Positions 47,801 through 49,406 of a stretch of 64,000 nucleotides of DNA are shown here, in pieces. The notes below the pieces were generated by a model. The model was given only the letters and a program-made list of their open reading frames with translations, was not told the origin of the DNA and searched no databases. A program made the position numbers and the translations under genes. How positions within the stretch are numbered: the stretch's first letter is position 1; every line of letters starts with the position of its first letter. The DNA is taken from the sequence record AP019559; one strand, given 5' to 3'. This stretch comes from Escherichia phage SP15.

Positions 47801-48487
47801 AGGAGTACCTGTCTGAGTACCTACTATAACACCAAATTTTTCTAGACGATTTAGCTGATCACCTAGTTTAAGTTGCTCGAATGCAGATTGCAAAACGAAG
47901 ATGTTGGAAGCAAGAGCTGCGTACATAATAGGTAAACTACCACCGATCTTAGCCATTGCTGCAAAATCACGAGTTGCACCGCGTGCCGAACCAGAAGTAT
48001 TACCGATAGCTCTGGAAGCTCTTCCAGCAGCACCAGTAGTATCATTAAAGCCCTTAGCTGTACCACCTAAAGCTCTATTAGTATCGTATAACCTATCTTG
48101 AACTTTCTCTGTTGCAGCTGCAACATCATTGCCCATTGTTTTAACAGATCTAGAAACTCCATCGAATCCAACTTCTAGTTTATCTGCTACTTCAATCATT
48201 GTAATAGCTAGGTCATCCAGCTTAGTCCCTATATCATTAATAGATTTAGTAATACTAAGCATGCCCCTACTAGCCTGCATTTTAGTAAGACTTTTCGCTG
48301 CTCTATCTGCTGCCCTCTCAATGGAGTATAGAGTTTTGGGCATTTTACCTAACTGTTCATTCGTTAGCTCAGAAGCCGCAGCAGCATTCTCTAATGCATC
48401 AGATACGTTTTCAATAGACTTTGCAGTACGAGTTGCCCCCTTCTGTTTAACGTCTATCAGTAATTCTCGTATTAGCTTATCAGTCAT
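44807..48487 (-). CDS. Tail tape measure protein (pb2-like)
   Basis: 1226 aa, extensive coiled coil and Ala/Gln-rich, hydrophobic segment near C-terminus. Confidence 0.85.
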   Translation of the reverse strand: MTDKLIRELLIDVKQKGATRTAKSIENVSDALENAAAASELTNEQLGKMPKTLYSIERAADRAAKSLTKMQASRGMLSITKSINDIGTKLDDLAITMIEVADKLEVGFDGVSRSVKTMGNDVAAATEKVQDRLYDTNRALGGTAKGFNDTTGAAGRASRAIGNTSGSARGATRDFAAMAKIGGSLPIMYAALASNIFVLQSAFEQLKLGDQLNRLEKFGVIVGTQTGTPVQSLARSLQEAAGYAISFEEAMRQASSASAYGFDAEQLNKFGLVARRAAAVLGVDMTDALNRVIKGVSKQEIELLDELGVTIRLNDAYADYVKQLNAANTGITYNINSLTTFQKQQAYANAVIAESTKRFGYLDEVLRATPWEQFAANADAALRKIQQAAAKYLGPVIDAINTVFYTSQASVSAEAARAQEKTNRQIDPTNVGAVALSLAASEEGYNKALDMYKESLDKRNKLKSEFDKRMEQADFYTKLAIRQVGEGIPVGLAAAGASEANKQFVAETAAMGLQVTRLGKEVEDSTENLNAWKSAYQAAGAAAAKASPEFQKQINLQRDTTDPDAVYDFNSTVLKGLTEQQKAYNQTKKTASDLANDIQNVAQNTDTAAKTSATLADAIKNIESLSLGTGKSADEYVKNLNLGYNTLSEMKTASQALSEYVKLTGNETKNQLAVQQKIADVYNQTKDKEKAQEAGRRLELQQLEEQEAALRRVLQTNQGNKAVEKEIEKIQLEKLKLTNQGMEAQKKVKDYTDKILGVDREIALLNDRTMTTTQYRLAQLKLELTVEKEKYEWYTKQADKQKEAEQSRRAQAQISRELWETEKQATASHVSALMDALEVSQTQRNVTGQAQILTERLSVLQEQLELSKGNTEEEIKYRNEIYKTAAALEQLRKQREGQMQQQVGSSVGAVYTPTTGLSGEDKDFADMQNRMASYDQAISKLSELNSEATAVAQSMGNLTNAMIQFSQGSLDTTSLIASGMQTVSSMIQYSTSQQVSAIDAAIAAEQKRDGKSEASKAKLKKLEAEKLKIQQDAAKKQIIIQTAVAVMQAATAVPYPFSIPLMVAAGLAGALALAQASSASSMSSIADSGADTTSYLTLGERQKNIDVSMSANAGELSYIRGDQGIGNANSFVPRAEGGNMYPGVSYQMGEHGTEVITPMIPMKATPNDELKTSSNSTSGRPIILNISAMDAASFREFASSNSSALRDAVELALNENGASLKTLGNS

Positions 48488-48511
48488 ATTTTATTTTTCC
48501 CAATAAAAAAA

Positions 48512-48536
48512 GGCTCTGGGCAAATCACCCAGAGCC
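48512..48536 (-). terminator. Rho-independent terminator just upstream of tape measure start
   Basis: Hairpin GGCTCTGGG-CAAATCA-CCCAGAGCC, T-run on minus strand. Confidence 0.6.
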
Positions 48537-48571
48537 AAGCCTCATCGTGGAACGCCCATTGGAGGAAACTT

Positions 48572-48940
48572 TTATCGCGCCCGAGATCTAGCATGTGGCT
48601 TAACGTTAGGTATTCTACCGTTTTGCGGCTTATGCTTCTCAGCACGTTTACGTGCAGCGTCTACAGCTTTAGCATCAAATATATTGATAATGTGTAGAAC
48701 AAATTCTTTCTCTATAGGATCGGTAATCCCATAAATATCAAATAAAACACCTAGAGCAGCTTTATCTTTGCCTATAAAGATAGGAAAGTCACCCGGTATG
48801 AAACAGTCAACTAGACTATTATAAATATTCATACTAATAGCTACAATAGGTGGAAAATCTTCAAGTTCAACAGGCATAGCCTTAGGATCAGGTTCTATAC
48901 CCATTGACTCGCAAAGTATTAGATATTGTTGTTTAGTCAT
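48572..48940 (-). CDS. Putative tail assembly chaperone, downstream ORF (no obvious RBS)
   Basis: 122-aa ORF upstream of tape measure; its frame is open back into the end of the preceding ORF. Confidence 0.45.
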   Translation of the reverse strand: MTKQQYLILCESMGIEPDPKAMPVELEDFPPIVAISMNIYNSLVDCFIPGDFPIFIGKDKAALGVLFDIYGITDPIEKEFVLHIINIFDAKAVDAARKRAEKHKPQNGRIPNVKPHARSRAR

Positions 48941-49001
48941 TTTAGACGCTGAGCTTTTAATACATTTATCAGCAAAGTCGGCAACAGCATCTAGTAGTTC
49001 T

Positions 49002-49406
49002 TTACGCTTTTGAGCTACGAAAAGTGTCTAAGTGGAACACTGTCTGGTTGATCCAAGAATCAAACGCAGCAGAGTTCTGCATGAGCATTACAGCATTATC
49101 GCGGCTAAAAGGAACTTCAGTAGCAGGATCAGCATCTGTTTCAATCAGCATCAGTTTTTCAACGTCACCTACAGTCAAACCGGTCCAACCTTTAATAGCT
49201 GCGTCAACGAAGGCTTCAATGAACTTATCATCATCCTGTACCTGAATCAAAGTACCATTAACCCATTCATCGCGTTTAGCAGAAGAAATAACACGTTTAG
49301 AGGTAGCACGAGACATATAGTTAAGTTCTAATTTAAAGTTCGGCATACCTGGGTAGGAAAGAGTAATAGTACGAGTATCAAGAGTAATATCTTTTAAATT
49401 AATCAT
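49002..49406 (-). CDS. Putative tail assembly chaperone
   Basis: Acidic 134-aa ORF with GGAG RBS, upstream of tape measure gene. Confidence 0.5.
   Translation of the reverse strand: MINLKDITLDTRTITLSYPGMPNFKLELNYMSRATSKRVISSAKRDEWVNGTLIQVQDDDKFIEAFVDAAIKGWTGLTVGDVEKLMLIETDADPATEVPFSRDNAVMLMQNSAAFDSWINQTVFHLDTFRSSKA

Follow-up and report, generated by a model that had tools for sequence, protein, structure and literature searches.

How the second of two small open reading frames (ORFs) before a tape measure gene comes to be translated is the question raised by a locus of Escherichia phage SP15. The DNA analyzed is a stretch of 64,000 nt from sequence record AP019559, referred to here as the window, and all positions are numbered along it. 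The first frame (ORF1) encodes a G-like tail assembly chaperone and the second (ORF2) a T-like domain. A first-pass annotation, made from the letters alone, had proposed that a +1 translational frameshift at or near the ORF1 stop codon joins the two into a G-T-like fusion chaperone, and had named comparison with related phages among the ways of checking it. That comparison was conducted in the current work, and every comparative test run favors +1 joining. As judged from sequence comparison, a +1 slip on UUU_CGU, shortly before the end of ORF1, likely joins ORF1 and ORF2 into a G-T fusion chaperone. The constraint on the spacer between the ORFs, the unconserved start of ORF2, an invariant slip-prone tetranucleotide, the -1 sites of distant homologues and a profile match all argue for such a fusion.

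The local reading frames agree with the earlier description in most respects. ORF1 ends with TCA AAA GCG TAA. Codons of ORF2 start at 1 mod 3, those of ORF1 at 2 mod 3, which places ORF2 in the +1 frame; a TAG at 49017-49015 closes the -1 frame. No GG dinucleotide, and hence no Shine-Dalgarno (SD) core, occurs in the 30 nt preceding ATG 48940, so that ORF2 lacks a recognizable ribosome-binding site; the ORF1 ATG at 49406 has GGAG 9 nt upstream. The ORF2 frame had been described as open for 21 codons upstream of its ATG. It is open, but over 29 codons, up to the TAG at 49030-49028; the figure of 21 is its reach to the ORF1 stop. At the local base composition an open run of 29 codons has a probability of about 0.15 by chance. 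This is not beyond chance, and the case therefore rests on comparison with relatives. Between TAG 49030 and ATG 48940 the ORF2 frame contains no ATG, GTG or TTG, and ribosomes translating this stretch must thus come in from ORF1.

Evidence for translation of the spacer and conservation of the proposed slip site

The spacer, 61 nt from the ORF1 stop to the ORF2 ATG, was compared among 29 distinct T5-like sequences that are 85-97% identical to the window. By codon position in the ORF2 frame, its variable sites are distributed as 5/1/15 (binomial P = 4e-4), the same pattern as in the bodies of the two ORFs (25/4/86 and 18/12/73). Twelve of the 15 variable codons are purely synonymous in the ORF2 (+1) frame and none in either of the other frames; one serine codon even switches from AGC to TCC among the T5-like sequences. 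Translation of the 61-nt spacer in the ORF2 frame is thus supported by its pattern of substitution. The segment coded upstream of Met48940 would include the predicted peptide ELLDAVADFADK.

The start of ORF2 is variable. Across 20 diverged lineages with the +1 arrangement, the column of Met48940 is occupied by I, V, L or F in 12. In these non-Met lineages the first ATG often falls within or past the conserved YLxxCE motif. The first start-like codon shifts from lineage to lineage, and database gene calls for ORF2 begin at differing places. On the evidence of the alignment, ORF2 is without a conserved start of its own.

These 20 lineages comprise the T5-like phages, Epseptimavirus, Yersinia phage phiR2-01, Pectobacterium phage DU_PP_V, phage Eos, Klebsiella phages Shiner and Sugarland (Sugarlandvirus), Pantoea phage AAS21, Enterobacter phage KKP_3711, Vibrio phages PG07, Ceto, JSF12, D51 and D28, and seven metagenomic contigs. 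In the eight lineages aligned first, the conceptual fusions are as low as 25% identical to that of the window. More broadly, among the matches listed for 908 matching phage records, every full-length one shows the two-piece +1 arrangement (tblastn).

An in-frame TTT_CGN near the ORF1 end is present in all 20 lineages, with CGT in 14, CGA in five and CGC in one; AGR never occurs. A restriction of the A site to CGT or CGA was considered and dropped, since the CGC is found in lineage L139. Elsewhere in the same genes TTT and TTC are used about equally (87:92), CGT and CGA together make up 38% of arginine codons, and AGA is the commonest of them. Set against this usage, the site suggests that the Phe codon and the following C are held at the nucleotide level. 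The naive probability of finding TTT in all 20 lineages is about 5e-7 (a TTT share of 0.49 to the 20th power), a value that assumes independent lineages, which is only approximately so. From the Phe onward, the +1-frame peptide is gapless in all 20 (F-[V/E]-x6-L-x3-L...), and F129 is invariant in the fusion alignment. An AF2 model of ORF1 shows a fold up to residue 128 and disorder from F129 onward, suggesting that the shift may fall at a domain boundary.

Other features of the site vary. The distance from TTT to the stop ranges from 1 to 19 codons and is 5 in the window. The E-site codons include ACT, AAC, ACC, ACG, GGG, TTG, CGA and AAT, with TCC in one lineage only. The smallest permitted shift window is AAC AAC TTT CGT TAA in Vibrio phage D28 (14 nt), followed by windows of 17 nt in Eos and L042. 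Inside these narrowest windows, only the move from TTT to TTC gives cognate re-pairing. The layout is not of the prfB type, because the stop does not directly follow the shift codon and the upstream sequence CAGACAGTGTTCCACTTAGACACT contains no GGAGG-like element.

In the proposed mechanism, most ribosomes would reach the ORF1 TAA and yield the 134-aa G-like chaperone. A minority would slip +1 with peptidyl-tRNA-Phe on the P-site UUU (49022-49020), and the tRNA would re-pair with the overlapping UUC (49021-49019), its fully cognate codon. The next codon read would be GUA (49018-49016), followed by the rest of the ORF2 frame. The predicted product of 277 aa would consist of G residues 1-129, a 26-residue linker and the T-like domain, with DNAVMLMQNSAAFDSWINQTVFHLDTFVAQK as the predicted junction peptide. 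If the roles are as for gpG and gpGT in lambda, both proteins would coat the tape measure protein pb2 with their G part and the rare T domain would recruit the tail tube protein pb6, the slip frequency thereby setting the G:GT ratio. We infer both the ribosomal nature of the event and its efficiency.

Profile comparison agrees with this arrangement. By its family or fold, ORF1 counts as a gpG-like chaperone. The profile phrog_313 ('tail assembly chaperone') is matched by ORF1 at positions 12-141 of 258 (E = 3.9e-34) and by ORF2 at positions 170-258 of 258 (E = 1.6e-17); ORF2 also matches phrog_3914 (E = 1.6e-56). For the conceptual fusion, a single alignment to phrog_313 spans residues 1-262 and profile positions 12-258 of 258 (E = 6.9e-54). 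A search of Pfam-A gave no match for ORF1, ORF2 or the upstream-extended ORF2, and a sequence search of the PDB gave none; the precomputed Pfam label on ORF1 homologues is PF27119 Phage_YdaY.

Distant homologues bring another kind of evidence. In a set of 39 distinct sequences at 29-40% identity, all from metagenomic viral contigs (IMG/VR; L043-L046, L077-L128), ORF2 lies in the -1 frame, and a canonical X_XXY_YYZ heptamer is present in the overlap in 39/39. Thirty of these heptamers are G_GGA_AAC, and A_AAA_AAC, A_AAT_TTT and A_AAT_TTC account for three each. They are located at or just before a conserved Asn-Phe (...G-N-F), matching the proposed slip site of the T5 clade. The T5 clade itself has no canonical -1 heptamer in the overlap; thus, the locus would work like G/GT but as a mechanistic variant. 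With the -1 homologues and the +1 Demerecviridae meeting at essentially the same codon, the direction of frameshifting appears to have changed within one protein family, and slips to -1 and +1 a few nucleotides apart in homologous genes show how recoding direction can change.

Among 146 representatives matching the extended ORF2 frame, no natural in-frame G-T fusion of about 270 aa was found. This absence and the heptamers of all 39 homologues together suggest that the family as a whole relies on frameshifting. The two long matches (P0006 and P0132) are repetitive junk. In P0036, from a 51-kb NCBI contig, the G tail reads into the T frame (…FRSSKRKLLDAVADF…) and diverges again, which looks like an indel-ridden assembly and not a natural fusion. 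A further match, P0147, is a T5-like phage protein under an Enterococcus faecalis label, probably a contaminant. In a word-indexed protein search the conceptual 277-aa fusion gave 0 matches against 12 for ORF1 alone, 98% identical ones included, and this discrepancy is unexplained.

Points against the shift and rival explanations

Several observations weigh against a +1 slip at UUU_CGU. An alignment of 12 lineages contains no SD-like stimulator upstream of the site, and shuffled sequences fold as well as the RNA of 49050-48930 does (z = -1.08), giving no sign of a significant downstream structure. CGT is the commonest arginine codon in the ORFs of the window (401/880), so the usual 'hungry codon' stimulator is missing, and only the lineages with CGA would fit a slow-codon explanation. 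The hexamer TTT_CGT occurs in frame 10 times in the long ORFs of the window and is thus not unique to the site, which suggests that efficiency is probably low, or else that there is an unrecognized stimulator. A low efficiency would suit a ratio such as the 30:1 of G to GT in lambda. In Sugarlandvirus, substitutions in the overlap are synonymous partly in the 0 frame and partly in the +1 frame, and do not place the shift. The support for the fusion comes entirely from comparing sequences, and the protein itself is a prediction. Finally, ATG 48940 is conserved in the T5-like phages in an A-rich context, and some independent initiation of ORF2 is possible there.

This last point leads to the alternative that survives best, in which T5-like phages would use both routes and produce, besides the +1 fusion, a free T-like protein from ATG 48940. 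All of the evidence for frameshifting applies to it equally. The Met codon is kept in the clade of T5-like, Yersinia and Pectobacterium phages, and the A-rich context could allow weak SD-independent initiation. However, a column containing M, I, V, L and F looks like ordinary hydrophobic variation at an internal residue, no SD sequence is present, and lambda is not known to make a free gpT. Use of both routes is therefore regarded as unlikely, but it would be no great surprise.

That no recoding takes place is improbable. In that case ORF2 would start solely at ATG 48940, by SD-independent initiation or by re-initiation after ORF1, and G and T would be separate polypeptides. T5-like phages, phiR2-01 and DU_PP_V all keep the ATG, and its context is A-rich and apparently unstructured; 13 sampled database records give separate coding sequences (CDSs) or omit ORF2; and a genome announcement, citing Zivanovic et al. 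2014, the main T5 morphogenesis paper, says that the T5 chaperone has no predicted frameshift signal (PMC6256483). Independent initiation, however, leaves unexplained the periodicity and synonymous bias of the 61 nt before the ATG, as well as the invariant TTT_CGN in 20 lineages. It has to begin ORF2 without an SD sequence and, in the 12 lineages where Met is replaced, at a first ATG that lies in the YLxxCE motif or later. The canonical -1 heptamers carried by homologues at the same position also stand against it.

A +1 shift elsewhere in the 26-nt overlap is very improbable. The stop codon, as GCG_UAA_A, was near the location first proposed, and AAA_G (49010-49007), conserved in T5-like phages and Sugarlandvirus, would let tRNA-Lys re-pair from AAA to AAG. 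At the stop codon, however, a move from GCG to CGU offers no re-pairing, and AAA_G is missing in most lineages, such as AAS21 (TTT CGT AGC TAA), D28 (TTT CGT TAA) and PG07. The varying length of the 0-frame tail bears on both sites: whatever the number of codons in it (1 to 19), the +1 peptide is gapless from the Phe, including in L079 (19 codons) and JSF12 (12), which argues against a shift at the stop. Moreover, a T/C polymorphism in AGC[T/C]CA is silent when read in the +1 frame and exchanges Ser and Pro in the 0 frame. Thus, the +1 direction proposed by the first-pass annotation is supported, and its placement is moved from the stop codon to TTT_CGT, five codons upstream.

Scarcely credible is a frame change at the RNA or DNA level, such as RNA polymerase slippage on CTTTTC, or a -2 ribosomal shift. 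In favor of these, the site includes a run of four Ts in the T5-like phages, and the frame reached by a +1 slip could equally be reached by one of -2, a kind of shift with a precedent in phage Mu gpGT. In most lineages, however, the run is only three Ts long (AAC TTT CGA), too few for transcription to slip productively, and -2 re-pairing would be mismatched (UUU to CUU or ACU; CGU to UUC). Because hundreds of genomes, sequenced independently, have the identical arrangement, it is no sequencing error.

Gene order, neighboring features and database records

The window is that of a T5-like phage (Tequintavirus). The 961 bases around the chaperone pair have matches in 442 phage records (80-98% identity), with Escherichia phage vB_Eco_mar004NP2 (Tequintavirus) as the best of them. 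The order of features in Table 1, from the pb6-like gene through the p140-like gene, ORF1, ORF2 and the terminator to the pb2-like tape measure gene, fits the position of a pair of small ORFs between tube and tape measure genes. The tape measure protein pb2 is the expected client of the chaperone.

Table 1. Features at the chaperone locus of the SP15 window, in order along the minus strand
Feature	Coordinates	Strand	Basis or remarks
Tail tube pb6-like gene	51712-50306	minus	Annotation of relatives
p140-like baseplate tube gene	50301-49399	minus	Annotation of relatives; PF23779 Baseplate_Tube_p140 on homologues
ORF1, G-like tail assembly chaperone, 134 aa	49406-49002	minus	ATG 49406, TAA 49004-49002; standard decoding
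Predicted G-T fusion CDS, 277 aa plus stop	join(49406..49020, 49018..48572)	minus	Conceptual translation
Shift-permitting overlap, 26 nt	49027-49002	minus	Bounded by +1-frame TAG 49030-49028 and 0-frame TAA 49004-49002
Proposed +1 shift site UUU_CGU	49022-49017	minus	Phe TTT 49022-49020, Arg CGT 49019-49017
Predicted fusion linker, 26 codons (VAQKRKELLDAVADFADKCIKSSASK)	49018-48941	minus	+1 frame; mostly annotated as non-coding spacer today
ORF2, T-like domain, 122 aa	48940-48572	minus	ATG 48940, TAA 48574-48572; no Shine-Dalgarno
Intrinsic terminator-like hairpin, 11-bp stem (7 GC pairs) then T7	48536-48512	minus	Between ORF2 and tape measure gene
Tape measure protein gene, pb2-like, 1226 aa	48487-44807	minus	Annotation of relatives; PF24164/PF24165 on homologues

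The start of ORF1 and the stop of the p140-like gene overlap by 8 nt at 49399-49406 (ATGATTAA), suggesting that translation of the chaperone is coupled to that of the baseplate tube gene. On the other side of the pair, the counterpart of the hairpin in T5 (NC_005859) carries the annotation of a putative terminator. A strong terminator-like hairpin before a very long tape measure gene suggests that transcription into that gene may be attenuated. In T5 itself (NC_005859, L037 651-1403) the endonuclease gene T5.141 lies between the chaperone genes and pb2; its counterpart is absent from the window (48487-48572) and from most relatives examined. The insertion of T5.141 beside the terminator looks like a mobile homing endonuclease. 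ARAGORN found no tRNA gene within the 64-kb window. T5-like phages have a tRNA cluster, which would thus lie beyond the window.

A joined CDS is annotated in none of the 13 database records examined, including the T5 RefSeq record NC_005859, where T5.143 and T5.142 are separate; in the record of Salmonella phage NR01, ORF2 is omitted. A full-text literature search brought up no description of a +1 shift in the chaperone genes of T5-like phages, although an earlier statement elsewhere is possible. Very probably the locus follows the known G/GT strategy, here by a putative +1 slip on UUU_CGN across the family, and this is apparently unrecorded for T5. If the +1 shift is true, the G/GT rule holds for the model siphophage T5 after all, and models of T5 tail assembly should take in the 277-aa fusion. 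For annotation, the matter extends to over 900 genomes of Demerecviridae in the phage collection, whose T-domain gene is inconsistently annotated; in the sampled records its starts are arbitrary or the gene is missing.

Comparison with known recoding systems

The -1 frameshift of lambda that gives gpG and gpGT takes place on G_GGA_AAG, and frameshifting in tail chaperone genes is conserved in long-tailed phages (Xu, Hendrix and Duda 2004, as cited in PMC5009743). The T5-like locus resembles lambda G/GT in having two ORFs directly before the tape measure gene, the second without a conserved start of its own, and in the predicted sharing of an N-terminal domain by a rare fusion and an abundant short product. 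Moreover, G_GGA_AAC, which distant homologues of this family have at the corresponding position, is nearly the heptamer of lambda. The direction in T5-like phages, however, would be +1, on a single-tRNA P-site UUU_C in place of a tandem X_XXY_YYZ heptamer. Further differences are the lack of detectable sequence similarity to lambda G or T, and the extra gene p140 between the tube and chaperone genes.

Tail genes of other phages show that recoding is not confined to -1 and that its direction may differ between relatives. Examples are Mu gpGT (-2), the tsh genes of the Listeria phages PSA, A118 and A500 (+1, CCC_UGA), SPP1 gp17.1* (+1) and the G-T pair of the haloarchaeal virus HSTV-2 (predicted +1). 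The published accounts found of the Mu, Listeria, SPP1 and HSTV-2 frameshifts do not include the use of UUU_CGN. Their slip codons differ from that of the T5 family, being the Pro codon CCC at a stop in the Listeria phages, and most of their products are not a G-T chaperone. As to +1 shifts in general, the PRFect paper states that no general +1 motif has been identified so far.

In enterobacteria, UUU_Ynn is prone to +1 shifting, and the YopN-TyeA fusion of Yersinia probably arises at such a site (PMC5009743). Both there and at the proposed T5 site, a bacterial +1 shift would occur on a UUU that precedes a pyrimidine and has no stop codon next to it, and would fuse the products of two adjacent genes. 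YopN-TyeA differs in being a secretion regulator for which the benefit of the fusion is unclear; the T5 site is kept across a virus family, in a tail assembly gene pair. A separate count of Phe codons by the following base in 55 long ORFs of the window gave 92 TTT before T or C and 346 before A or G, against 169 and 143 for TTC (chi-square 87, P about 1e-20). This bias fits a genome-wide avoidance of the shift-prone UUU_Y.

The UUU_CGN motif is also found in plant amalgaviruses. In influenza A virus, PA-X arises by +1 slippage at UCC_UUU_CGU, for which Firth et al. 2012 (PMC3498833) gave proof by mass spectrometry. The same paper reports that tRNA-Phe has a higher affinity for UUC than for UUU, predicts a class of +1 signals composed of UUU_C plus restricted flanking codons, and lists CGU at 20.2 per 1000 codons in E. 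coli, among the commonest. The core hexamer of the T5 family, UUU_CGU/A, is identical to that of PA-X, and the proposed event is the same, a slip of tRNA-Phe from UUU to UUC with CGN in the A site. The differences are the bacterial ribosome, the unconserved E-site UCC, and the abundance of CGU in both E. coli and the phage, so that codon rarity cannot be the stimulator here. If the +1 shift is true, family-wide use of UUU_CGN under such abundance argues against codon rarity as the explanation of the motif in general.

A broader reading is offered tentatively, with slightly less than even confidence. UUU_CGN may be a self-sufficient +1 cassette on bacterial as on eukaryotic ribosomes, with codon rarity irrelevant, and the whole of the Demerecviridae may have switched from an ancestral -1 site (G_GGA_AAC or A_AAT_TTY) to +1 at the same Asn-Phe. 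If this is true, T5 would provide a genetically tractable bacterial model of PA-X-type frameshifting, with a clear switch of direction within one family.

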